Source: an uncultured Clostridia bacterium
GTDB taxonomy: Bacteria > Bacillota > Clostridia > Christensenellales > CAG-917
DNA: 64,000 nucleotides
Reading direction: 5' to 3'
Assembly: GCA_963545485.1 (NCBI GenBank)
Contig: CAUUJG010000005.1
Location: 5,890 to 69,889, forward strand
Part shown: one piece after another, positions 11,905 through 24,872 of the stretch
How positions within the stretch are numbered: position 1 is the stretch's first letter
Layout of the letters: each line of letters starts with the position of its first letter
Position numbers and translations under genes: made by a program
Notes under the pieces: generated by a model
What the model was told of the DNA's origin: nothing
The model's input: the letters and a program-made list of their open reading frames with translations, nothing else
Database searches by the model: none

Positions 11905-12050
11905 TTTTAATTCCTCCTCCCTCTTTCTGACTTAATTATATATTTTTATTTTTAATTTTTTCAATAATCCAATTTCATTAATTAGCTAATTCGTACTATT
12001 CATTTACATTGCCTTTATAACCAATAATTGAATATAATTAGTTTGCTTTT

Positions 12051-12139
12051 GGAGATGTATCGAAGTGGTTATAACGGGGCTGACTCGAAATCAGTTAGGG
12101 AGCAATCCCTCGGGGGTTCGAATCCCTCCATCTCCGCCA
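12051..12139 (+). tRNA. tRNA-Ser (anticodon CGA), CCA encoded
   Basis: Acceptor GGAGATG pairs with CATCTCC. The anticodon loop is CTCGAAA, there is a long variable arm (TAGGGAGCAATCCCTCG), the T-loop is GGTTCGAATCC, and discriminator G precedes CCA. Confidence 0.9.
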
Positions 12140-12279
12140 CGCACCCAAAATTGCTACCTGATCATATCGAATTTACCCCAAATATTGCCCCTACACGCCC
12201 TAGTTTTAACGATTTAGTTTCTTTCGATGACATTATCAACGGCGAGTGGAGAGACCTGAGATTGCGAGGAAATGGTTAT
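12140..12279 (+). repeat. island repeat copy R1 (B segment only), abutting the tRNA-Ser 3' end
   Basis: The core ...cccaaaattgctacctgatcatatcgaattt...cattatcaacggcgagtggagagacct...ggaaatggttat recurs at 15499, 17700 and 24697, and in diverged form near 22130. Confidence 0.9.
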
Positions 12280-12326
12280 GTGAGAGAGTAAAAATAATTA
12301 CTAATTGTCTTGACTTGGGGAGCATA

Positions 12327-12995
12327 TTAATTTTCTACTTCCGCAATCATTTTCGTTAATTTGTGATATCTACAATATGAAGTTTCTTCGTTGCTTGTTT
12401 CTCCACCTAAATCAATTATCGCCTGACCTATTATTGCCCTCTTTGATGGCTTGCTGTTATTTAGAATTTCCAGCTTGGTATCTCTTTCTAATATAGACAA
12501 TGTCCCCCGATTGTTTGTCGTACCATAATATGTCTTCCCTGTTAAGGATGACGTGAATTCAATATCTTTGAAATGATGTCTCTTTATTGACATCTCGGAT
12601 TCTTCTTCTGCTACATCATTTTCTAATTCTTGTTCTTCAGTAATATCAATTTTCTTTAAATTGTCTACTAGCCCATTTATTTCGGCAATTGCCTCAAGAA
12701 TTTTATATGCTTCTTCAGCAGTCATAGCGTAGAATTCCCTCTTCCTTTCTTTGTTATTATATATTTCTCTTGCTCTTAAATTAGGATTAAGTTGATCAAT
12801 TAAGTCGTGAATCTTTATGTCTGTTAATCTTTTTTCAACTTCATAATAGGCATATAATCTGAAGGCAAATGGTATACATGAACTGCTATTTAAAGTATTT
12901 ACTCTTTCTTTTACGTCATCCGCATAACCAATCTTGACATACTGCGGAAAAGAAGGATTTGTTAAAATATAAATAACTCCTGCTTTATTTTTCAA
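12327..12995 (-). CDS. GIY-YIG / T5orf172 (MUG113)-type domain protein
   Basis: 222 aa. The N-terminus GVIYILTNPSFPQYVKIGYADDVKERVNTLN... fits the GIY-YIG-like T5orf172 fold. The C-terminal half is unassigned. Confidence 0.6.
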   Translation of the reverse strand: MKNKAGVIYILTNPSFPQYVKIGYADDVKERVNTLNSSSCIPFAFRLYAYYEVEKRLTDIKIHDLIDQLNPNLRAREIYNNKERKREFYAMTAEEAYKILEAIAEINGLVDNLKKIDITEEQELENDVAEEESEMSIKRHHFKDIEFTSSLTGKTYYGTTNNRGTLSILERDTKLEILNNSKPSKRAIIGQAIIDLGGETSNEETSYCRYHKLTKMIAEVEN

Positions 12996-13271
12996 AATAG
13001 CTTACCTCTTTTATATGTCCATCTTTTCTATTTTTATTTTTTGAATCGTCCTTTCTCATTATTTCCAACATCTCCTATTTTTTCTACAGCTCTATCGTAA
13101 CATAATAACGGAACTTTTCACTAACGCCAAAATCGCCCGATAGAATTAGACGGGAACAAAAAATCAGCAGACAATATTTGCCTAATTACTCAATTCAAGA
13201 ATAGACCTGTTCGATAACCATTTCAAAACAATAGCAATCAGTTATAATATATTGAGTGATAAAAATGAACC

Positions 13272-14237
13272 ATGAGGAGGATGAGGATGAAAAAACGACT
13301 ACTTTCAATGAAAGCCGACGGATTTTATGGGATTTGGTATCCGAATTCCAAGAGAGAAAGTCACTGCGGTATGATACTTATGCTTGGTGATTCTTCGGAC
13401 GGCAGGATGGTTTGTGCCGGGGTAAAATGGGTGCATGGGCAAGGACTTCATGCACTTTCACTTTCGCCTGGGAAAAAGGATCTCGGTCGACACAATTATC
13501 CGTTGGAATTCGTGGGAAAGGCGATTGAATTCCTTCGAACTCAAGGCTGTGAGAAAATCGGAATTTGCGGAGTATCTGCAACGGGGATAACAGTTCTTCT
13601 TGCCGCATCTTATTATTCGGACATCAGTCTTACCATAGCAATGACTCCTGCGGATTTTGTCATGGAGGGGTATTATAGGGACGGTGCGGACGGTGCTCAC
13701 GAGCGACCGGGAGATCATGAATCCTCCGTGTCATGGGAGGGAAAACCTTTGCCGTATTTGCCTTATGCTTACAGACATCCGGAGTATTGGAAAAAAATTA
13801 AAGAAGAGTCCAAAGCGGGCGGTGATTTGATCGCAGCTCGAAAGATGTTTGATGAATCGGAACGTCGTCATCCCGTCACCGAAGAAGAAACGATTAAAAT
13901 AGAACGTATTCACGGGAAGATGGTTTGTATCGGAGCGGAAGATGACGTTTTGTGGGATACCTGCAAATATATTCGAAGAATGCAGCGGAGACTGGAACGG
14001 CTCCCACACAACTGTGATTTCGAGGCATTGACTTATGAACACGGGACACATTTTATATTTCCGGAATTCATGTTGAAACGGATATTTCCGATCGGCTCGG
14101 GACTTCTGATGGGATTTATATTTAAGGCGGCAAGAGAATATCCGAAGGAATGCAAAGAGACAAGATTGGATATTGACAGGAGACTTATGCGGATAATCAG
14201 TAAATGGTCAAACGAAAAAAAAAAGAAAAGCCATTAA
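13272..14237 (+). CDS. alpha/beta hydrolase, BAAT / acyl-CoA thioester hydrolase C-terminal-like
   Basis: 321 aa with a nucleophile elbow GVSATG and a C-terminal HGTHF. GC content is clearly higher than the flanks. The likely true start is the ATG at 13287, 6 nt after AGGAGG. Confidence 0.6.
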   Translation: MRRMRMKKRLLSMKADGFYGIWYPNSKRESHCGMILMLGDSSDGRMVCAGVKWVHGQGLHALSLSPGKKDLGRHNYPLEFVGKAIEFLRTQGCEKIGICGVSATGITVLLAASYYSDISLTIAMTPADFVMEGYYRDGADGAHERPGDHESSVSWEGKPLPYLPYAYRHPEYWKKIKEESKAGGDLIAARKMFDESERRHPVTEEETIKIERIHGKMVCIGAEDDVLWDTCKYIRRMQRRLERLPHNCDFEALTYEHGTHFIFPEFMLKRIFPIGSGLLMGFIFKAAREYPKECKETRLDIDRRLMRIISKWSNEKKKKSH

Positions 14238-14334
14238 TTTCCAGCTTAATGACATCGGTCTTTAACCGAGGCTGTCGATTTTTTAATGACCCCATCAAAA
14301 ATCTATCAAAATTAACACATCAATTCATGAAAAA

Positions 14335-14435
14335 TAAAAAAGCACCTATTTCTAGATGCCATAGTATTAAAGTCTTCACCATATTCTCCCAACAACTCAA
14401 CTCATCAATAATCGACAATCTAACCCACTCAATTA
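14335..14435 (+). repeat. island repeat fragment (A segment only)
   Basis: aaaaaagcacctatttctagatgccatagtatta..cttcaccatattctcccaacaactcaactcatcaataa... matches the A segments at 15349, 17540 and 24530. Confidence 0.85.
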
Positions 14436-14535
14436 ATAAAAACCCCCATCAAAAAACATTATCAAGGATGATACGCTACTAGACTTTTATTAATGACTTT
14501 TTCGCTACATGAGATTTTTTGTTAAAAGTTTTCTA

Positions 14536-15210
14536 TTAGATGAAATTTACTCTTCGATCTATTTCTTCATGCCATTCATCATCGTAATCTTTATAAAACC
14601 TAAAAAGACCTTTAAACGATTTCTTATTATTATTTAAATATGACCTTGAAAACTGGCAGTTGATACGTTGCAGACTTTCACAATTATAAAATGCCTCATC
14701 CTCAATACTTTTCACTGAACTTGGGATTATTATTTCTGAAATTGATGTCCCAAGAAATGCTGCAGCACCTATCTTTTCTAATCCTTGATTTAGCGTTATA
14801 GTTTTCAAATTTTTACAATAATAAAATGCATTTGTCCCTATTATTTTTATCCCATTTCCAAATGCAACCTCTCTTAAATTTGTACATTGATTAAAAGCAT
14901 GAGATTGAATTTCTTCTACTGAATTTGGAATATTCACTTTTTCAATATATTCCTTAAACATAAATGCCCTTTCGGATATTCTATTTATTGGATACCCTTT
15001 ATATTTTGTAGGGATATTTACATTTTCTCCAACACCTATGTATTCTTTTATTGAGTACCCGTTAGCAACTCTTTCCATTTTAAAATTTTTTTCTATATCT
15101 GCATCAGTCATAATCTTCTTTGTAGTCGCTCCATTTGAACAACCAAACAATGACATTGATAGTAGTAAAATTAAAGATATAAACAATGCTAACTTGATTT
15201 TTTTATTCAT
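14536..15210 (-). CDS. lipoprotein with BspA-type leucine-rich repeats
   Basis: 224 aa with a signal peptide and lipobox (LFGCSNG). Repeats follow the pattern I.IP.SV..I...AF..C..L. It is a paralogue of the C-terminal half of 15703-16890. Confidence 0.75.
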   Translation of the reverse strand: MNKKIKLALFISLILLLSMSLFGCSNGATTKKIMTDADIEKNFKMERVANGYSIKEYIGVGENVNIPTKYKGYPINRISERAFMFKEYIEKVNIPNSVEEIQSHAFNQCTNLREVAFGNGIKIIGTNAFYYCKNLKTITLNQGLEKIGAAAFLGTSISEIIIPSSVKSIEDEAFYNCESLQRINCQFSRSYLNNNKKSFKGLFRFYKDYDDEWHEEIDRRVNFI

Positions 15211-15242
15211 AAAACTCCCCTCGAAAATAAATTATTAAAAAC

Positions 15243-15273
15243 ATTCTACCCCCCCCCCATTTTAATTTGTCAA
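15243..15273 (-). promoter_or_regulatory. sigma-A-type promoter with a G10 tract inside the spacer
   Basis: The minus strand reads TTGACA(15273-15268)-AATTAAAAT-G10(15258-15249)-TAGAAT(15248-15243). The spacer is 19 nt. RBS GAGGGGAG and the ATG at 15210 follow. Confidence 0.65.
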
Positions 15274-15632
15274 TACCATAGTGAATTTTAAGTTATGAAA
15301 GACACATGAAATAGCCATTCAAAAATTAATCAAGAGACTCATAGAAAATAAAAAAATACCTATTTCTAGATGCCATAGTATTAGAGGCTTCACCATATTC
15401 TCCCAACAACTCAACTCCTCAATAACCGACCATCTACCCCACTTAATCACCCAAATTCAATGCCTCATTCCACAAGTATTATTAAACTTAATCTATGCGC
15501 CCAAAATTGCTACCTGATCATATCGAATTTGCCCAAAATATTGCCCCTACGCGCCCTAGTTTTGATGGTTTCGATTCTTTCGATGACATTATCAACGGCG
15601 AGTGGAGAGACCTTAGAATGCGAGGAAATGGT

Positions 15633-15669
15633 TATAAATAAAATATGGACATCGGTGAGGACATCCATA
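15633..15669 (-). terminator. intrinsic terminator at the end of repeat B
   Basis: The minus strand reads TATGGATGTC-CTCACC-GATGTCCATA (10-bp stem including 2 G-U pairs) followed by TTTTATTTAT. It lies 34 nt after the stop of 15703-16890. Confidence 0.6.
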
Positions 15670-15702
15670 GTTATAATTTTGATATTGATTTAATTTTTTG
15701 TT

Positions 15703-16890
15703 CTATCCGTTTACCCAGTTGATTATAGATTCTTTTTCAAGTAGTCCTCTAAATTTACTCTCATTAGCTTGAACATAACTTTTCTTTAACTTACATTCTA
15801 TTGACCTAAGTTTATCGCAAAAGTTAAATGCCCTTTCTCCTATCTCTTCTACTGTACTTGGAATTGTTATTTCTTCGATACCTGTTTCATGAAACGCACT
15901 TGGTTCTATTTCTTTTAAGCCTTCATTTAGAGTCACTTTTTTAAGATTTGAACAACCCGCAAAAGCAAGTTTTCCTATTTTTTCTAATGTGCTTGGCATT
16001 CTTATTTCTTCGATACCTGCTCCAGCAAACGCTACTTGTTCTATTTCTTTCAATCCTTCATTTAGAGTCACTTTTTTAAGATTTTTACACCCCCAAAAAG
16101 CACCGCCTCCTATCTTTTCTAATGTACTTGGCATTGTGACTTTTTCTATATTGCTATCGAAAAATATTTTAGCTCTTGTCTTTTTACACGTTAATGGTTT
16201 AGTTAATTTCTTTAGAAAAGCTACTTCCTTTAAAAAATCAGAAAACGCTCCTTCTATTATTTCTATTATTTTATAACCTTTATAAATACTAGGAATTCTT
16301 ACATCTGTTGCTTCTCCCTTATATTTCGTTATTACCAATCCGTTTGGAACTCTTACTATTTCAAACAACTTTTTTATCTCGGCATCGGTCATCTTTATTT
16401 CAACTTCTTGATCCAAATCAAAATCTTCACTAGGGGATTTCTTAATATGAGCAAGTCCCAAATTACTATTTAACGCAAGTAATTCCATCTTCTTCTTTTC
16501 AAATTCTTCTTGAGTTATTATGCCAAGATCAAGTAACTCTTTTAATTTTCTTAGTTTAGTAATATTTTCTGCTGGCATGTTGTTTTGTGTTGTTTCTCGT
16601 GCCACATTCTTTTTATTCTTAATATCTTCATCTTTAGAATTTGCCACCATAAATAAAGCCACAACTGGAACAATGGGAATAAAAAACCCTACTATCAAAA
16701 GTATCCATATCGTATTATCATTTACAGATTTATTTTTTTTATTTTTGCCGTACTCAACAGTTACAACTATATGAAAGACAAAAGCTATTGTGACCAGAAT
16801 ATGCCCTATACCTATTATTAACGTTAGATAGCCCACTATATATAAGATAGCTGCATCTTTTGCCATTTTTTTAAGTTCATGTGATTCCAT
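15703..16890 (-). CDS. membrane protein with SHOCT domain and BspA-type LRR domain
   Basis: 395 aa. The N-terminal 2-3 TM region and the LRKLKELLDLGIITQEEFEKKKMELL (SHOCT) motif are paralogous to 16925-17407. The C-terminal LRRs are paralogous to 14536-15210. Confidence 0.75.
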   Translation of the reverse strand: MESHELKKMAKDAAILYIVGYLTLIIGIGHILVTIAFVFHIVVTVEYGKNKKNKSVNDNTIWILLIVGFFIPIVPVVALFMVANSKDEDIKNKKNVARETTQNNMPAENITKLRKLKELLDLGIITQEEFEKKKMELLALNSNLGLAHIKKSPSEDFDLDQEVEIKMTDAEIKKLFEIVRVPNGLVITKYKGEATDVRIPSIYKGYKIIEIIEGAFSDFLKEVAFLKKLTKPLTCKKTRAKIFFDSNIEKVTMPSTLEKIGGGAFWGCKNLKKVTLNEGLKEIEQVAFAGAGIEEIRMPSTLEKIGKLAFAGCSNLKKVTLNEGLKEIEPSAFHETGIEEITIPSTVEEIGERAFNFCDKLRSIECKLKKSYVQANESKFRGLLEKESIINWVNG

Positions 16891-16924
16891 TTCCCCTACT
16901 CCAAGTTAATTACTATAGTACATG

Positions 16925-17407
16925 TCATGCTAGTAGTTCATTTTTCTTCTTATCAAATTCCTCTTGAGTTATTATTCCTGAATCAAGCAACTCTTTTAGT
17001 TGTTTTAGTTTTTCAAAGTTATCAACTGTTTCTTCCCCTTTAGAGTTTTCAGCAGACATATTATTTGTAGTTTCTCCACTCAACTTTTTAGAATTTGCAA
17101 CTAAAAACAAAGCTACAATTTCAACAATATGCACAAAAAATCCGATTATCAATAATATAAAAACAGTATCTTTGCTATCTTTAGAAAATCTTCCATACTC
17201 AACTGTTACGATTATATGAAGTATAAAACTAACTAAATACATCGCACTAGCTATCGAATAAGTGATGACATATGCTATCACCATTCCCTTAGGATTTGCA
17301 GTTACGAGTGCCATAGCTATTATAAGTCCTACTATAATTAACACAAAAACTAGAATTTTTAGTATTGCAGTATTCTTTGCAAGTTTTTTGATTTTATTAA
17401 TTTCCAT
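16925..17407 (-). CDS. membrane protein with C-terminal SHOCT domain
   Basis: TM helices plus LKQLKELLDSGIITQEEFDKKKNELLA. The ATG at 17407 is preceded by GGAGGAA. The track ORF starts at a TTG at 17419. Confidence 0.75.
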   Translation of the reverse strand: MEINKIKKLAKNTAILKILVFVLIIVGLIIAMALVTANPKGMVIAYVITYSIASAMYLVSFILHIIVTVEYGRFSKDSKDTVFILLIIGFFVHIVEIVALFLVANSKKLSGETTNNMSAENSKGEETVDNFEKLKQLKELLDSGIITQEEFDKKKNELLA

Positions 17408-17435
17408 TATTTCCTCCAAAATTTAATATATTAAA

Positions 17436-17466
17436 ATCTTACCCCCCCCCCATTTAATTTTGTCAA
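17436..17466 (-). promoter_or_regulatory. sigma-A-type promoter with a G10 tract inside the spacer
   Basis: The minus strand reads TTGACA(17466-17461)-AAATTAAAT-G10(17451-17442)-TAAGAT(17441-17436). The spacer is 19 nt. RBS GGAGGAA and the ATG at 17407 follow. Confidence 0.65.
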
Positions 17467-17832
17467 TAGTTGAGTGAATTCGAGGTTATGAAAACATATG
17501 CAGTGGTCATTCAAATTAATATGATAATTCTTGGAAAAATAAAAAAGCCCCTATTTCTAGAAGCCATAATTTGAGAACATTCACCATATTCTCCCAACAA
17601 CTCAACTCATCAATAACCGCACATCTAACCCACTCAATTGACCAAATTCAACACCTCTGCTCCACAAGTATTATTAAGCTTAATCTACAAACCCACGCAC
17701 CCAAAATTGCTACCTGATCATATCGAATTTACCCAAAATATTGCCCCTATGTGCCCTTGTTTTGATGGTTTGATTTCTTTTGATGGGATTATCAACGGTG
17801 AGCGGAGAGACCTTGGAATTGAGGGAAATGGT

Positions 17833-17869
17833 TATAATAAAATATGGACATCGTGTTGGGACATCCATA
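17833..17869 (-). terminator. intrinsic terminator at the end of repeat B
   Basis: The minus strand reads TATGGATGTC-CCAACAC-GATGTCCATA followed by TTTTATTAT, downstream of res. Confidence 0.55.
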
Positions 17870-17961
17870 CTCTTAATATTTTTCTTTATTTGATTATAAA
17901 CTCTCCCCCTAACAAACTATTTCATAAATCCTAATTGTTTTGTCATATGGCACATCACCAT

Positions 17962-20175
17962 TTAGAAAATTTTTTCTATTGGCATCCATCTATTGTCTGA
18001 CATTTTCAATACGAACTCAGTGTTGTTGATATAAAGGTTATTGTCGACGTCACGAACAAAACCCCAACTTAGATGTTTTTCATTTGCATATTTCTTAAGT
18101 GCATTAAATTTATTACCAATCTGGGCATCTATATTCTTGTTTGTTCCAGCAATCTCGCCACCTTTTGTTTCAATAACCCACACCGTCCCATCTTTCTTTT
18201 TTACAATATAGTCTGGATAAAATAACCATTGTTTTTGAACAGCATCGATATATACAATTGAAAAATATTGTTGACCAGAATCGCCGTTTTTATACACCCA
18301 ATCAATATCATCTCTTCTTTCACAATACTGTTCAAATAATTGCTCACAAGTGCTTCTAATCAATCTCGTATTAAATTCAGATGTGTACCCATCATAGGCA
18401 TTACTCAATATGTCAATGACCTTTTTAGTAGTTGGATCGTATTTAAAAAAATCTTCAACTAGCATATGGAAGGTTGATGTTTTCACAAACAAATCCATTC
18501 TGCCCTGTTTAACCATTCCAGCTGTTACTTCTTTGAATTCTTCTTTTAGTTTTTTTTCATTGTTGATTATAAAGGCATAGAAGAAATCTGTATCGAGATT
18601 GAGCAGTTTCTTATATTTGTTTGTTTGTTTTTTGAACAAGCGTTCTAGAATTGCTTTTGTCTGTTTTGTTTCAAGACCAATGACTTTTTTAAGTTCATCA
18701 GTAGCATGTAACAAATAAATACCATGTTTATGCGTATTCACCTTTCTTTTAGTTTCAATTACTCGTGCTGTCTCATCACCTACTGTCTCTGTTTTTACAT
18801 AAGTACCAGTCAGTGTTTGACCAAGCAATGAATCGCCAAATACATATCCAGCATTTTCAAGTTTTAGTTGATTTTGTTTTTTATCGGCGGTTAGCTTGTA
18901 TTTCTCCACAAAGAAATCGTATATCTTATTCGAGACATCACGCTCCCCCATTATTGATAAATCACGATCACGAACTTGTTTTTCGAGCTCAAATGTTTTG
19001 CATTTATCCTTTAGAAATAGACGCCTCGTTTCGTACGCCTTATCCATTTGTTCAAGCAATCCGTTTTTCCAAATCTCGTCGAATGTATATACGAAGCAAT
19101 AGTCAAGAAGATTATCTTCATAATGTTTCGCTTCTGGCATCCTTCTAATTCTACCGATTGTTTGAATCTCAAATTGCTCACTCATTCCCTCACGAAGTTT
19201 CACTAGGATCTTTGCACGTGGACAATCCCAACCTGTGCTGATAGCTTGTTTCATGAGTAAAAAGACTGGTGTTGCATCATTGTCGGTCAAATTCTCAGGC
19301 AAATCCCGCTTGTCCTCGCTCATCCACTTACTAACAAATCCGTTCTCATATGTATAACCCATATCCCTAAGTTTTTGTTCTACTGCTTCTATTGTTTCTG
19401 GTTGTCCGTTTGGAAATTGAATTAATACAAGAGGTCTGATTTTCTTTTCTATTTCATTGTATCGTTTTTGAATAGCTTTTCTCTTTTCATCTGCAAGTTC
19501 TAATAACCTATCATAGTCATTATCTATTACTTCCCCACGCTCAATGCCTTCATTGACTGACAGTGCTTTTGTTATTAACCCTGCGTCAATCACCCTTCTT
19601 TCGTCAATTTCATAGTACTCAAACCTTTTATTCTCTCTAGCAGTGGCACTCATCCTTATTATGTGTTTGGCAGTGAAAGAGTCAATTATTGCATTTGCTT
19701 TCGCAGTATTATTGGAGTGTTCCTCATCAATTATAATGATAAAATATATATTGTTGCACCTTGCTTCATCAATTCTATCATACAATGTTTTCCGTTCACT
19801 CTCGGTTATTGCCCTATTACCAGTCTTCGTCACTAATTCCCAATTAATAAATGTCGTGCTTCCCGCTGTAAAACCGCTGGTTAAGGCATCATTTAATGTT
19901 TGTGCTTTCATGGTTGGGGCTATTTTTAGCATCTTTCGACGGCTTTGTTCCTCGAGGTCTCCTTTGCCAGGACATAACCATATAAAAGCAACATTTTTGT
20001 CAACTTTATTAAAAAACTCGTTTATGTAATTGATGAGAATTATTGTTTTACCTGAACCAGTAGGTGATTTAATCGTTACAGTCGGTTTATGATTCCCTGT
20101 CGTTAATTCAATTAACTTTATTACCGCATCTTCCTGAAAATCAAAAAGTTTGATATTCACATTTCCACTTACCAT
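17962..20175 (-). CDS. res: Type III restriction enzyme, Res subunit (SF2 helicase plus PD-(D/E)xK nuclease)
   Basis: 737 aa with Walker A SPTGSGKT, DEEH box IIIDEEH, a helicase C-terminal QTIGRIRR motif, and a C-terminal PDYIV...VIETKGG nuclease motif. The start overlaps the mod stop (ATGGTAA). Confidence 0.85.
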   Translation of the reverse strand: MVSGNVNIKLFDFQEDAVIKLIELTTGNHKPTVTIKSPTGSGKTIILINYINEFFNKVDKNVAFIWLCPGKGDLEEQSRRKMLKIAPTMKAQTLNDALTSGFTAGSTTFINWELVTKTGNRAITESERKTLYDRIDEARCNNIYFIIIIDEEHSNNTAKANAIIDSFTAKHIIRMSATARENKRFEYYEIDERRVIDAGLITKALSVNEGIERGEVIDNDYDRLLELADEKRKAIQKRYNEIEKKIRPLVLIQFPNGQPETIEAVEQKLRDMGYTYENGFVSKWMSEDKRDLPENLTDNDATPVFLLMKQAISTGWDCPRAKILVKLREGMSEQFEIQTIGRIRRMPEAKHYEDNLLDYCFVYTFDEIWKNGLLEQMDKAYETRRLFLKDKCKTFELEKQVRDRDLSIMGERDVSNKIYDFFVEKYKLTADKKQNQLKLENAGYVFGDSLLGQTLTGTYVKTETVGDETARVIETKRKVNTHKHGIYLLHATDELKKVIGLETKQTKAILERLFKKQTNKYKKLLNLDTDFFYAFIINNEKKLKEEFKEVTAGMVKQGRMDLFVKTSTFHMLVEDFFKYDPTTKKVIDILSNAYDGYTSEFNTRLIRSTCEQLFEQYCERRDDIDWVYKNGDSGQQYFSIVYIDAVQKQWLFYPDYIVKKKDGTVWVIETKGGEIAGTNKNIDAQIGNKFNALKKYANEKHLSWGFVRDVDNNLYINNTEFVLKMSDNRWMPIEKIF

Positions 20176-21889
20176 GATTCTCCAACCTCCTTCATTTCAA
20201 AATCAAAATAATAATCTGGAATTGTTTGTATTTTCACTTTATCAAAAAGCTCTATCTGCTTAGTCGATAACAAAACTTCTCTAGAAATGTATATACACTC
20301 TGGAAAATTGTTTTTATCCCATTTTGCTTCCAAATCGTCTGCAGCACTATCGTTTAATAAAACAACATATTTCTTGCCGTCAATCTTTATTCCATTTTCA
20401 AGTTGTATCATTTCACATACGTGTTCAAGTAAGGCATCTAATAAAAAGTCCTCATCTCGTGATACAAAATCTGTCTTGTAATATTTTAAATTATGTGGTA
20501 ACTCCTTCTGAATATTCTTAAGCCTTTGATAGGTGACTTCCTCGCAAATTTTATTCTCATTATTCGTGCAAAGTATATATCTGCGATTCCCGCCATCTTC
20601 TTTGTTTAATTCAATCACTGCATGACCTGTTGTACCTGAACCCGCAAAAAAATCTAAAATTATTGTGGGTTCGCTATTCTTTGTTTCTGCACTTTTAATC
20701 AAGCGTTTTAATAACTTTAATGGTTTTGGATAATCAAATTTACCTCGACCTAATATTTTGATGACTTCATTGTTCCCGTTTGTTGAATCAGTAATTATAT
20801 TTTTTAAATTCGTAGAGAACATGTCTCTAATTTTTGTAAATATCCTAAATGTGTCTCCGTCCTTTTGAAAATGAAGATTTTCTACATCTTCACAAACTTT
20901 TTTTTCAGACCATCTCCATGCATGAAATTTATGTATACCATCTGCATTGTTGTGAGGTTTTATCAAAACAAAATTTGGATCTATTTTTTTTACTACTTCT
21001 CCATCATCTATCTTGGCAGTAATTACTTCTTTCGTTCTATCATTATAATAAATGTTATAAACTAAATTTGGTCTAGTTTCTTCATTGAAGGCAGAGTTCG
21101 TGTTAAATAACTCATTTTTAATCACATACTCACTTATTTTGTCTTTATATATTCTATATTCATTGTTTTTATAAATTGAAGGCATTTCTGTCGACAATTC
21201 TCTTATGTCTCCCTTAAAAGTATGAATATTTTCACCTGTTGCCGCATATAACAAAATATTTTCATATGTCTTGACAGCTCCACCACGCCCAATTTGTCTA
21301 CCTTTAGAATTATTTATCCATACAAAATCTGAAATAAAATTTTGTTCACCAAATATAGAATCACATAAAAGTTTTAAATTATACAACTCGTTATCATCAA
21401 TACTGATAAAAATAACACCGTTTTCTTTTAGTAATTGTTTTGCTATGCATAATCGTTTTGCCATAAAAGATAGCCATTTTGAATGTCTATAGCCATCTTC
21501 TTCTCCAACCATTGCATCATCATAAATAAATTCCTTCCCCGTGTTGTATGGCGGATCAATATAAATTACATCAATTTTTCCCTTATGTGTTTTTTGTAAT
21601 AAATACAGAGAGTGTAAATTGTCTCCCTCTAGTAGAAAATTATACCCCCCCCCCGCACATTGCTTATTATTTTTTCTTTTACTTCGGTAAAAACAGGAAT
21701 ATTGCCCCGTATATTATCATCAACTGTTTCTGTATGTTCCTCCCAAACCAAACCATACTTTTTACTTTTCAAAGCACTCTCAATTTCCCCAATTGCTACA
21801 AGGGACTCATCATCTGTCTTATTTTGTTCTTTAAGTTGTTGAAGAAAATTTAGCATCTTTTCTCTCTTCAGTTTTGATATATTCCCCAT
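20169..21889 (-). CDS. mod: Type III R-M Mod N6-adenine methyltransferase, frameshifted at a G10 tract (phase-OFF as assembled)
   Basis: The ORFs 21629-21889 and 20169-21512 are two pieces of one gene. With G11 or G8 the frame reads ...RGGGGYNFLLEGDNLHSLYLLQKTHKGKIDVIYIDPPYNTGKEFIYDDAMVGEEDG..., running into the 447-aa ORF that carries motif I (LDFFAGSGTTGHA). Confidence 0.85.
21645..21654 (-). repeat. homopolymeric G10 (C10 on the plus strand) inside the mod coding sequence
   Basis: Counted directly as 10 consecutive C at 21645-21654. The reading frame breaks immediately downstream (TAG at codon 87). Confidence 0.95.
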
Positions 21890-22049
21890 TTTTGCTCCTT
21901 ATTCTTTTTTATTGGCGAAAACATGCCAAACTTTAATACATATTAATTAAATAAGAGAGAAATATCAATTTAATTTATTAGTGACGACTGCCATGAGCCC
22001 GCATCACACGGTTGTCCAATAGAATTTAGTTTGATTAAAATATTTTGAT

Positions 22050-22305
22050 AACGGTACATCTAATTCACCTAATACAAGACATCCCCCACTCCAAATCCCT
22101 TATCAAGAATATTCTACAAACCCACCGCCAACAAATCACTAACGGATAATATCAAAACTAGCCCAAACATTGCCCCTACATGCCCTAGATTTCGTGACTT
22201 TGATGTTTATGACTACATTATTCACCGTGAGATACTAACCCCTTAAATAATAGGAAATGATTATGTATGGGAATAAAATATGGGCATCGGTTAGGACATC
22301 CATTT
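22050..22305 (+). repeat. island repeat copy R4 (diverged A+B)
   Basis: Retains ...ctacaaacccac...cattgcccctacatgccctag...attat.caccgtgag...ggaaatgattatg...aaaatatgggcatcggttaggacatccat in the same order as the other copies. Confidence 0.7.
22272..22303 (-). terminator. intrinsic terminator at the end of repeat B
   Basis: The minus strand reads ATGGATGTC-CTAACC-GATGCCCAT followed by ATTTTATT. It lies 16 nt after the stop of 22319-22849. Confidence 0.5.
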
Positions 22306-22318
22306 CAACTATTTTATT

Positions 22319-22849
22319 TTAGTCAATATCTTCTTTGACATTTATGATTTTCCCTATCAAACATTTCTTCCCAATCAGTCTATTCAAAATGTCTAGCCCT
22401 GACTTATGCATCTCGATTCCAGCGTTAGAAAAACAATACTCCGTTAAAACAATAGGCATTATACCCTTTTCAAACAAGTCTACCGCTATCTTTAGAACAC
22501 AACAATCAGTATCAACTCCACAGACATGTACTTTATTTGGCACTCTGTTATTGTTTAATTTTTTAAGTAAATCTATAAAGTCATTATTAACGCAAGTATA
22601 TACTTCCTTATCAACTACTTCATCTGCTTTAATTCCATCAACCAAATCGATATCTGGATTCTTTGAAAGTTTATCCCAGTTTAAATATTTCCTAAAAGGG
22701 CTTTCTTCCTTATTTATAAATCTAGTGGCTACTACTTTATCAAAACTGCCATTCCTAGTTAGGGCTATAATTTTATCCGCTACCTCTCTAGTTTCATTCG
22801 TTTGGCAAAACCCATTCTGTATATCCACTACAATTAAAATCTTATTCAT
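22319..22849 (-). CDS. isochorismatase-family cysteine hydrolase (nicotinamidase-like)
   Basis: The protein starts MNKILIVVDIQNGF (catalytic Asp block) and contains VCGVDTDCCV (nucleophile Cys block). The ATG at 22849 lies 7 nt after the upstream gene's TGA, with RBS GAGGGA overlapping that stop. Confidence 0.8.
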   Translation of the reverse strand: MNKILIVVDIQNGFCQTNETREVADKIIALTRNGSFDKVVATRFINKEESPFRKYLNWDKLSKNPDIDLVDGIKADEVVDKEVYTCVNNDFIDLLKKLNNNRVPNKVHVCGVDTDCCVLKIAVDLFEKGIMPIVLTEYCFSNAGIEMHKSGLDILNRLIGKKCLIGKIINVKEDID

Positions 22850-22856
22850 TAATCCC

Positions 22857-24083
22857 TCATTTATTTTTATAGTTAAATAATACTGTAGCAATTGCAACCG
22901 CCAATAAGGCAATAAATAATATCCAATTTCTCCAACTAAATTGACTTTTCACGATATCCCAAACTGTTTTATACAATGATGACGCTGTGAAAACTGCTAG
23001 GAATATATCAACCACCACTTTGTTCTTTTTCTTCCTGTCTAGATTTTGTGCCTCTTTTATTTTCTTTTGAATACTTATTTGATTTGCTACTGATTTATAT
23101 AATTGTTTGACTTCTGATGTAGCTATTACCTTTTCAAGTATTGTTTTATACAGTGAACTCATATTGGCACTTATTCCATTCTCTAACTCTGAATGTGAGT
23201 ATTCAATTAAACTTGCTAGCCTTTGCAAACTCTCCATACTGCATGTACTAGTCTTGGTTATGTTGTCCATACAATTGTCGGCAATAAACCATCTAGATTG
23301 GATATATGCCTCTACTTTAATTAACTCAGAAATCAATGGTATGTTCAAAACTTCTTCATAGCTTGTTAAATTTCTTTCTGCCTCAACTGCTACACCAGAC
23401 CAAGAGTAATATGATAAGGCATTGTCTGCTTCCAATACGTACTTTACTTTTTCTGCTTTACTTGCTTTTATATTTTTATCTATATTTGCCCATTCACTAT
23501 TAGTAGTAACTTTGTTAAAAATCTTTGACTCCATTAAGTGATTAATTTCATTTTCGTTCAATGCATTCTTATTAATCAAATAAACTGTCAACACATACGA
23601 CAACCCATCGGCTTTATATGTTTTTGCCCCTGAAAATTTTCTAGTATGTGGAATCAATTTTTTCTTTACGCCCTCGCCTACTATCTTCCAACATAAATCA
23701 CGGAACAACTCCATCATCTTTTTCTCTTCTGCAAAAATTTCCTTATCTTCGAAACGATTCAATATTGCTGCTTGAGATACTTCTTTTTGATAGTTTGCTA
23801 ATAAAGCCTTGCTATATGTAAAAATTGATTTGTCGGTATTCTTCAGTGCGTTACCATCAAAGTCTGAAAGCACGAATATCCCCACTCCATTAGACAGGAC
23901 ATAACATTTTAAATGTGGCAACAAACTTGCAATGCAAATAGATGAGTCCACAAGGTCACTATTATCAAATGAAATCCCATCAACAGTCTGCCCTAAATAT
24001 TTTAAAGTGATATTGTCTTTTACCTCTATTCCATATTCTTTAGCTATATTTATGAGGTTTTGATTGAATGATTTTGCGAACAC
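22857..24083 (-). CDS. hypothetical protein with a C-terminal transmembrane anchor
   Basis: 408-aa ORF with no motif I can assign. The C-terminus has WILFIALLAVAIATVLF (TM). The start is a GTG without a visible SD, so the 5' end is uncertain. Confidence 0.5.
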   Translation of the reverse strand: MFAKSFNQNLINIAKEYGIEVKDNITLKYLGQTVDGISFDNSDLVDSSICIASLLPHLKCYVLSNGVGIFVLSDFDGNALKNTDKSIFTYSKALLANYQKEVSQAAILNRFEDKEIFAEEKKMMELFRDLCWKIVGEGVKKKLIPHTRKFSGAKTYKADGLSYVLTVYLINKNALNENEINHLMESKIFNKVTTNSEWANIDKNIKASKAEKVKYVLEADNALSYYSWSGVAVEAERNLTSYEEVLNIPLISELIKVEAYIQSRWFIADNCMDNITKTSTCSMESLQRLASLIEYSHSELENGISANMSSLYKTILEKVIATSEVKQLYKSVANQISIQKKIKEAQNLDRKKKNKVVVDIFLAVFTASSLYKTVWDIVKSQFSWRNWILFIALLAVAIATVLFNYKNK

Positions 24084-24289
24084 TGAATTTTTGAATTATT
24101 GACACTTAAACAATCATTGAAAATACACCCTAAATCAAAAGGGATAATGTGCACTTGTTGAATTGGGTTGCTTTCTATTACAAATTGCCTAGTCACATAT
24201 TTATTATACAACCTAAAATTAAATTTTCTATCACTGAATATACTAAAGTAATGGCTAGTTCATAAGCTTCGTAGTCACAACATCAACAA

Positions 24290-24335
24290 AATAAAAAAGC
24301 ACCTATTTCTAGATGCAATTTTATGAGAGCCTCGA
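24290..24335 (+). repeat. island repeat fragment (start of A)
   Basis: aaaataaaaaagcacctatttctagatgcaattttatgagagcc matches the first ~45 nt of the A segments. Confidence 0.7.
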
Positions 24336-24529
24336 GCCCTGGTCTTATAAACCCAGTTTTTAACGACTGGCTGTTCTCTCGTTACGACCTCAATCGTACC
24401 ACGCTTTTTTACGGCGTCAAATCGTAAATAAAATATAAAGGAGCTTTATAAAAATGTCAAGATGTCGTTGAAAAACAAATCTCCTAAGAGGACATTAAAG
24501 AGTTATCAATATTAATATGACACATCATG

Positions 24530-24872
24530 GAAAATGAAAAACGCCTACTTATAGATGCCATAGTATTAGAGCCTTCACCATATTCTCCCAACAACTCAAC
24601 TACACAATAACCGCATATCTAACCCACTCAAATATCCTAATTAAACACCCCCACCCCATATGTATTATTGAACATGCTCTACAAACGCACAACGACAAAA
24701 TTGCTACCTGATCATATCGAATTTACCCCAAATATCACCCCTGTGTGCCCTTGCTTTGATGATTAGGATTCTTACGATGGCATTATCAACAAAAAGTGGA
24801 CTAACCCTAGAATGGCAAAAATAATTGTGTGGAGAATAAAAAATACGGACATCAATTGGGAGATCCATATGC
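24530..24872 (+). repeat. island repeat copy R5 (A+B)
   Basis: ...cttatagatgccatagtattagagccttcaccatattctcccaacaactcaac...caaaattgctacctgatcatatcgaatttacccc...cattatcaac...acggacatcaattgggagatccata. Confidence 0.88.
24838..24869 (-). terminator. intrinsic terminator at the end of repeat B
   Basis: The minus strand reads TATGGATCTCCCAATTGATGTCCGTA (imperfect stem) followed by TTTTTT. It lies 21 nt after the stop of 24890-26104. Confidence 0.5.

Follow-up and report, generated by a model that had tools for sequence, protein, structure and literature searches.

A poly-G tract in a promoter spacer as a likely phase-variable switch of a SHOCT/LRR operon in an uncultured Clostridia lineage

Does a run of ten guanines lying between the −35 and −10 hexamers of a promoter make the operon behind it switchable, and is this run kept by selection? 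The question is raised by promoter B, located on the minus strand of a window of 64 kb (the whole stretch of DNA analysed), which belongs to an uncultured, gut-type Clostridia lineage of low GC content, known from metagenomes.

Promoter B and the operon behind it

The promoter region was characterized, from the −35 hexamer to the start codon, by the following elements.

17461-17466, minus strand: −35 hexamer TTGACA, a 6/6 match to the consensus
17452-17460, minus strand: A/T part of the spacer, AAATTAAAT, 9 nt, read from the sequence
17442-17451, minus strand: G10 homopolymer, proposed to be prone to slippage, which brings the spacer to 19 nt
17436-17441, minus strand: −10 hexamer TAAGAT, matching the consensus at only 4/6 positions
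17411-17417, minus strand: ribosome-binding site (RBS) GGAGGAA, with 5 nt between GGAGG and the ATG
17405-17407, minus strand: ATG start of gene 1, 28 nt from TAAGAT

The hexamers, the G10 tract, the 19-nt spacer, GGAGGAA, and the ATG at 17407 all read on the minus strand as the original prediction had described them. Transcription would be expected to start near 17429. In front of a gene, two recognisable hexamers (−35 and −10) thus enclose a homopolymer long enough to slip (~7 nt or more). Promoter B was missing from our consensus promoter scan because its spacer is 19 nt, and the scan takes only spacers of 16-18 nt.

Tracts of this kind were rare. A regex census of the 64 kb for G or C runs of at least 6 nt returned only three, each of exactly 10 nt and all of them G when read on the minus strand; runs of 6-9 nt, whether of G or of C, were absent from the 64-kb window.

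15249-15258, minus strand: G10, within sister promoter A
17442-17451, minus strand: G10, within promoter B
21645-21654, minus strand: G10 within the 5' coding region of a type III mod gene (start codon ATG at 21889), whose frame is broken at the tract

Words of eight Gs gave nine overlapping matches (the three tracts) against 0.25 expected, and nine or more were obtained in 0 of 100 shuffles. The sister site at 15273-15243 differed from the 27-nt core of promoter B by one mismatch, with 0.00 matches expected in shuffles. The observation at promoter B is confirmed as real and is clearly non-random.

An artefact of sequencing or assembly, such as the poly-G of two-colour chemistry, is extremely improbable as its source. 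One related contig does carry C/G low-complexity junk at this position (L014, 1-250), and another begins within the tract (L017, 1-10). Against this, many independent assemblies, produced by several pipelines, have the tract within a long contig and with conserved sequence to its left and right, and the poly-G at B is not a contig-end artefact, because other assemblies carry it with the same flanks. The two failures indicate that assemblies are fragmented at such loci and that assembly-derived tract lengths need read-level confirmation.

The genes downstream of promoter B, together with their paralogous stretches and the hairpins on either side, were located as follows.

16925-17407, minus strand: gene 1, 160 aa, with about three hydrophobic segments (hydropathy) and a C-terminal SHOCT domain (Pfam, E = 1.5e-10)
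15703-16890, minus strand: gene 2, 395 aa, with a transmembrane (TM) segment, SHOCT (Pfam, E = 2.5e-8), and a BspA-type LRR_5 region (Pfam, E = 4.5e-70)
16468-16715 and 16922-17169: paralogous stretches of genes 2 and 1
15826-16095: 135-nt tandem duplication in the LRR region of gene 2
15644-15669, minus strand: terminator-like hairpin with a T-run, closing the operon (terminator scan)
17546-17565, minus strand: terminator-like hairpin just upstream of promoter B, at the end of repeat D2 (terminator scan)
17869-17843, minus strand: hairpin upstream of the operon, after the type III res gene (17962-20175)

The original prediction of a two-gene operon (16925-17407 and 15703-16890) is reasonable, the genes being separated by a gap of 34 nt with no terminator-like site between them and followed by the terminator at 15669-15644. 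Gene 2 has its own RBS, and, judging from this arrangement, the two genes are probably co-transcribed. The BspA-type LRR domain of gene 2 is predicted to be surface-exposed. The N-terminal third of this gene (the TM and SHOCT module) is a paralogue of gene 1, with 73-76% identity in DNA; in a related contig, L036, one fused TM-SHOCT-LRR gene takes the place of the pair.

Upstream, the two predicted terminators shield promoter B from read-through out of res. The operon, insulated in this way, must therefore rely on its own promoter, and, from 17545 to the ATG, the consensus promoter scan listed nothing else that could serve as a promoter. Two candidates were rejected, namely TTGAAT-18-CATAAC, upstream and within the repeat module described below, which is without the essential T at −7, and TTAATA-17-AATAAT, which overlaps the RBS and the ATG.

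Taken together, we consider it likely that promoter B is a sigma-A (sigma-70-type) promoter with a slippage-prone poly-G spacer, that is, a phase-variable switch of spacer length. Slipped-strand mispairing during replication would add or remove Gs, giving a spacer of 9 + n nt: G8 would produce the optimal 17 nt, G7 and G9 would produce 16 and 18 nt, and G10 and G11 would produce 19 and 20 nt, respectively. The output of the two-gene operon would then differ between cells of one population. By analogy with porA of Neisseria meningitidis and tp0126 of Treponema pallidum, in which the optimum is 17 nt (PMC2791445, PMC7864442), promoter strength would peak at G8, with G10 weak or OFF. Since G10 gives a 19-nt spacer, the sequenced state of promoter B is probably weak or OFF and not a working promoter. 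From the sequence, we infer the start site, the effect of length on transcription, switching at B, and the assignment of the ON and OFF states.

The repeated module and the island beside tRNA-Ser

The original prediction held that the core of promoters A and B had been kept while the flanks drifted, and took this as a sign of selection on the tract. This argument does not stand, as the two promoters proved to be the ends of copies of one module of about 470 nt, of which the core is no better conserved a part.

15243-15273, minus strand: sister promoter A, TTGACA-AATTAAAAT-G10-TAGAAT, preceding an LRR_5 lipoprotein gene
14536-15210, minus strand: LRR_5 lipoprotein gene, 224 aa, downstream of promoter A
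17513-17869, minus strand: module at B, composed of a hairpin, a 153-nt D1, and a 126-nt D2 ending in the second terminator, with the promoter at its downstream end
15322-15669 and 24506-24870, minus strand: further copies of the module (repeat comparison)
12134-12286, 14308-14433, and 22119-22271, minus strand: partial copies (repeat comparison)
L034 1350-1720 and L008 930-1200: copies outside the window

The alignment of A with B extended over ~470 nt, with an identity of about 79-82%: it began at the hairpin that follows the gene before, took in D1 and D2, and ended at the −10 hexamer. Upstream of the −35 hexamer, identity was 79%; in the 31-nt core, 27 of the 31 positions were identical (84% as aligned by MAFFT, 87% ungapped), and many 40-nt stretches of the module were conserved at least as well. 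Directly after the −10 hexamer, identity dropped to 55%, which is the background for DNA as A/T-rich as this. Because A and B are copies of one module, this pair alone shows no selection on the tract.

The same homology would be expected if the tract had been passively inherited with a duplicated repeat and did not switch, the length differences being noise from sequencing or assembly, or slow neutral drift, and the operon being constitutive or driven by another signal. We regard this explanation as unlikely. A window that contains no G or C runs of 6-9 nt and yet three of 10 nt speaks against it, as does the occurrence of the tract and hexamers without the flanks of the module (family P0008; L021 and L022); moreover, no alternative promoter was seen.

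Several other roles were considered for the module. Rfam searches (gathering threshold for the whole window; E ≤ 1 for 12000-22400) returned tRNAs only, with no match on the module. A structured RNA on the minus strand was rejected, RNAalifold of the minus strand of seven D1-D2 copies having given no consensus structure (−1.5 kcal/mol). A plasmid BLAST of the module in distant mode found no match. D1 was also rejected as an attachment site that includes the 3' end of tRNA-Ser: it does not have the appearance of a recent att duplication, because the homology consists of the terminal CCA only and the copies are 62-86% identical. A short conserved plus-strand ORF in D1 ('PKLLPDHIEF...') was discarded as well, its copy at 12028 overlapping the tRNA gene. 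Promoter-carrying miniature repeats (Correia/MITE-like) were weighed as a comparison for the D1-D2 promoter module, and the direct-repeat structure was examined.

The copies lie in an island bordered by a tRNA gene.

12051-12139: tRNA-Ser(CGA), island border

To the left of this tRNA, we found housekeeping genes (SOD, pantothenate kinase, and homoserine dehydrogenase), and to the right a variable island with genes for T5orf172, a BAAT-type hydrolase, the LRR lipoprotein, the SHOCT operon, a type III restriction-modification (R-M) system, an isochorismatase, and Macro- and HD-domain proteins. No transposase or integrase was found among the scanned island ORFs of at least 150 aa, which cover most of the island (ORF 22319-22912 left out). 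The module separates the gene cassettes of the island, in copies that are 62-86% identical, and a G-tract promoter follows it at three copies (window A, window B, and L034). Cassettes associated with the module so far include BspA-type surface proteins, the SHOCT operon, a DUF2326-like gene followed by a GIY-YIG gene, and the R-M system.

A portable ~470-nt module (terminator, D1, D2 with the second terminator, and TTGACA-N9-G(n)-TAxxAT) might punctuate this hypervariable island, giving new cassettes both insulation and a stochastic switch, with the repeats as recombination substrate for cassette exchange. We offer this as a speculative and rather doubtful reading; were it true, a Clostridia lineage of gut commensals would possess a modular 'contingency-cassette' system.

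The third G10 tract lies in the type III mod gene, and type III mod ORFs are a classic phase-variable target. At G10, the N-terminal frame meets a stop, and the ORF encoding the N6_N4_Mtase domain (20169-21512) is in another frame; by frame arithmetic, G11 or G8 would put mod back in frame. In contig L013, a 99.88% identical strain, the tract is G13 (L013 3233-3245), which also leaves the gene OFF. A simple-sequence repeat inside the ORF thus sets the frame and differs in length between strains, as in a phasevarion, and from its sequence mod looks like a classic phase-variable methyltransferase that is OFF here. A contig look-up with the mod protein found nothing beyond the contig already known. 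With this tract, the sequence places at least three poly-G contingency loci within 6.4 kb: promoter B, the LRR lipoprotein promoter, and the type III mod gene.

In L013, res carries an extra G after a T6 run (window position 20011; res 17962-20175), which splits it into products of 56 and 683 aa. As res is split and mod is frameshifted, the R-M system of this strain appears to be doubly inactivated.

A small conserved unit was also observed in the window, at about 24288-24470 on the minus strand, with counterparts in L012 (146-319) and L023 (~30-205). Its own promoter-like site, TTGACA-17-TATATT, is separated by ~150 nt from a terminator-like hairpin; the unit is 78% identical between the window and L012, is without an Rfam match, and may be an unannotated small RNA.

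Tract length in related contigs

Tract lengths were taken from low-coverage short-read metagenome assemblies, which are unreliable at G9-G11, and are given here for the related promoters.

L008: lipoprotein promoter A, TTGACAAAATAAAAT-G9-TAGAAT; homology to the window 96.5%, beginning exactly at the −35 hexamer
L015: lipoprotein homologue (98% aa identity), orthologue of promoter A with G8
L016, L018, L019, and L020: family P0007 (58% aa identity), TTGACAAGATAAAAT followed by G11, G10, G9, and G10, respectively, then AGAAT
L021 and L022: family P0008 (43% aa identity), with an unrelated upstream flank, TTGACAATTTCAGAT-G9-TAGAAT
L034: B-type promoter, TTGACAAAATCAAAC-G11-TAAGAT, behind a full D1-D2 module
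L036: ~95%-identical orthologue of promoter B, with an interrupted 11-nt tract GGGGTGGGGGG, a 20-nt spacer, and the intact fused gene

Across this family, the tract measured 8-11 nt and the spacer 17-20 nt, in a common design of TTGACA, 9 nt, G(n), and TA(A/G)(G/A)AT. The −35 hexamer TTGACA was unchanged in window promoter A, L008, L015, L016-L022, L034, L036, and L012. The A/T-rich block 5' of the tract was 9 nt in all G-tract members and 8 nt in the tract-less L012 and L023, and the −10 hexamer abutting the tract was TAAGAT in L034 and L036, as at B, and TAGAAT in the A family. Homologous promoters were polymorphic in length, with G10, G9, and G8 for the A type, G11, G10, G9, and G10 for P0007, and G10 and G11 for the B type.

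The operon itself was recovered in two further assemblies, in ENA contig NODE_331 (L001/L013/L037), which differs by 7 SNPs and 2 indels across 9.4 kb, and in Logan contig L002, identical at 100% over 1970 nt. Promoter B carried G10 in both, and hence in 3 of the 3 assemblies with an identical operon (the window, L001/L013, and L002), which may not all be independent samples. The original prediction of a phase-variable promoter is therefore only partly borne out, in that the same architecture occurs with G8-G11 at related loci, while B itself is G10 in all near-identical assemblies. The independent switching that had been proposed for the two promoter loci has indirect support from the mod tract, which differs between the window (G10) and L013 (G13) with B unchanged; no switching was observed at B.

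That B is G10 in every near-identical assembly is what passive inheritance would lead one to expect, and the breaking of contigs at the tract, where assemblers struggle, as well as the interrupted tract tolerated in L036, point the same way. The five P0007 contigs argue otherwise: they come from five samples, encode one identical protein, and differ over up to ~1.1 kb only in the tract (9, 10, 10, and 11 nt) and in one SNP. A difference of 11 versus 9 nt was seen even among contigs sharing one source prefix (VALL22-1), presumably from one pipeline, and the mod tract differs by 3 nt, versus the ±1 typical of consensus error.

For the spacer-length switch, the sequence thus offers support in the form of a perfectly kept TTGACA always 9 nt before the tract, with the −10 hexamer directly after the tract, the contigs that differ in the tract only, the membrane or surface cargo, the 3-nt difference of the mod tract between near-identical strains, and the near-absence of other G/C runs. 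Membrane and surface proteins are the usual cargo of such switches. Counting against the switch, the B-type spacers seen were all of 19-20 nt, with none at the predicted optimal 17-18 nt. The interrupted tract of L036 fits strict spacing control poorly, unless sequencing introduced the T by mistake or that promoter is locked OFF. The −10 hexamer, with its 4/6 match, and the short-read origin of the tract lengths also weigh against the switch.

These spacers would be easier to understand if the tract were hypermutable and regulatory but acted by other means, through the binding of a regulator, as a G-rich element by an extended −10-like region, or with an alternative sigma factor, in which case 19-20 nt would not be OFF. 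The mode of the family is indeed 18-19 nt and not 17, and the tract always abuts the −10 hexamer, of which it replaces the first T in the P0007 promoters. Precedents exist in T. pallidum, where the effect of poly-G at tprE/G/J is modulated by a CRP homologue, and in N. meningitidis, where the poly-C tract of opc is thought to act via a regulator (PMC7864442). We nevertheless judge this alternative quite improbable, as TTGACA is perfectly kept at 9 nt from the tract in all G-tract members and the tract-less homologue has a canonical 16-nt spacer; moreover, on inspection short of a dedicated search, the surroundings of the tract showed neither a candidate operator nor an inverted repeat.

That homologue, found in L012 and L023, encodes a SHOCT protein of 135 aa, and its DNA is 81% identical to the beginning of gene 2. 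Its promoter keeps TTGACA, followed by a 16-nt spacer with only GGGG and then TATCCT, which supports the assignment of the hexamers and a lineage-specific expansion of the tract. In L034 (1740-3276), the promoter precedes a different gene of 224 aa (weak DUF2326 match) and then a GIY-YIG (T5orf172-like) gene, which suggests that the switchable promoter also serves possible defence genes, beyond surface proteins.

Among the wider searches, a pattern scan of species-representative genomes gave eight matches, of which one was a relative (L008, 'uncultured Clostridia bacterium'). Four (L003, L004, L006, and L009) look like chance matches, and L005, L007, and L010 were rejected as relatives, since they belong to an unrelated Anaerolineales locus. 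The viral contig scan for the promoter pattern gave no matches, and the sole match of the metagenome (JGI) scan, L011, looks like chance in unrelated sequence. P0003, a SHOCT protein without a tract from an unrelated organism of ~45% GC, was uninformative.

Comparison with known repeat-controlled promoters

In both porA of N. meningitidis and tp0126 of T. pallidum, poly-G between the −35 and −10 hexamers controls expression, with an optimum of 17 nt; in porA, tract length sets the distance between the hexamers and thereby promoter strength, so that expression is high, medium, or absent (PMC2791445, PMC7864442). Promoter B resembles porA, and the fetA and opc (poly-C) genes listed alongside it, in having a G homopolymer in the core-promoter spacer of a surface-protein gene. 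It differs in its host, an uncultured low-GC Clostridia lineage and not a Gram-negative pathogen such as Neisseria, in the tract directly abutting the −10 hexamer, and in the promoter riding on a repeated ~470-nt module; the effect of length is taken by analogy.

In T. pallidum, poly-G tracts of 7-12 nt occur in the promoters of the putative outer-membrane protein genes tp0126 and tprE/G/J/L, and most cells carry a poorly permissive length; at tprL, G8 is active and G10 is near background (PMC7864442). The cargo is related in kind, BspA-type LRR proteins being of the 'TpLRR' class (PMC5476646), whereas the phylum and gene families are different, and variation and activity were shown experimentally in T. 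pallidum versus comparisons between assemblies only here.

The cargo of the island is closest to that of Candidatus Mycoplasma girerdii, in which BspA-like proteins and type III mod genes vary through simple-sequence repeats, with many loci OFF in the consensus, and in which most of the repeats are CA dinucleotides located within ORFs and affect translation (PMC5476646). Both organisms thus pair BspA-like LRR surface proteins with type III R-M methyltransferases as contingency cargo. In contrast to Ca. M. girerdii, two of the three tracts here are homopolymers in promoter spacers, predicted to act on transcription.

A further parallel is offered by the vlp genes of Mycoplasma hyorhinis, paralogous surface-lipoprotein genes that each have their own poly-A in the −35/−10 spacer and switch independently. 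The tract is poly-G here versus poly-A there, and the vlp host is a mollicute.

Promoter B is most likely a poly-G spacer switch of a well-known kind, that of porA, fetA, tp0126, and the tpr genes, with no new mechanism. Mildly new are the host lineage, the three tracts in 6.4 kb, and a promoter carried on a repeated insulating module in front of different cargo. Repeat-mediated phase variation has been documented mainly in pathogens (Neisseria, Haemophilus, Campylobacter, Treponema, and mycoplasmas), and in gut anaerobes attention has focused on invertible promoters. If confirmed, this locus would give an uncultured low-GC Clostridia lineage a poly-G contingency cluster of two surface-protein promoters and a type III methyltransferase, and BspA-type LRR surface proteins would be stochastically varied in such commensals. 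It would also mean that metagenome assemblies alone can reveal switches, through differences in tract length in otherwise identical contigs. In practical terms, a consensus genome cannot give the expression of these genes, and assemblies tend to break at the tracts.

Finally, a similar design was observed in the homologous upstream region of Anaerolineales MAGs (L005 934-954, L007 2685-2705, and L010 5673-5693), in which TTGACAAAATAAAAT is followed by G6, G9, or G8 and then by a −10-like hexamer, TA(A/G)TAT. These loci are an independent instance of the G-tract promoter design in Chloroflexi.
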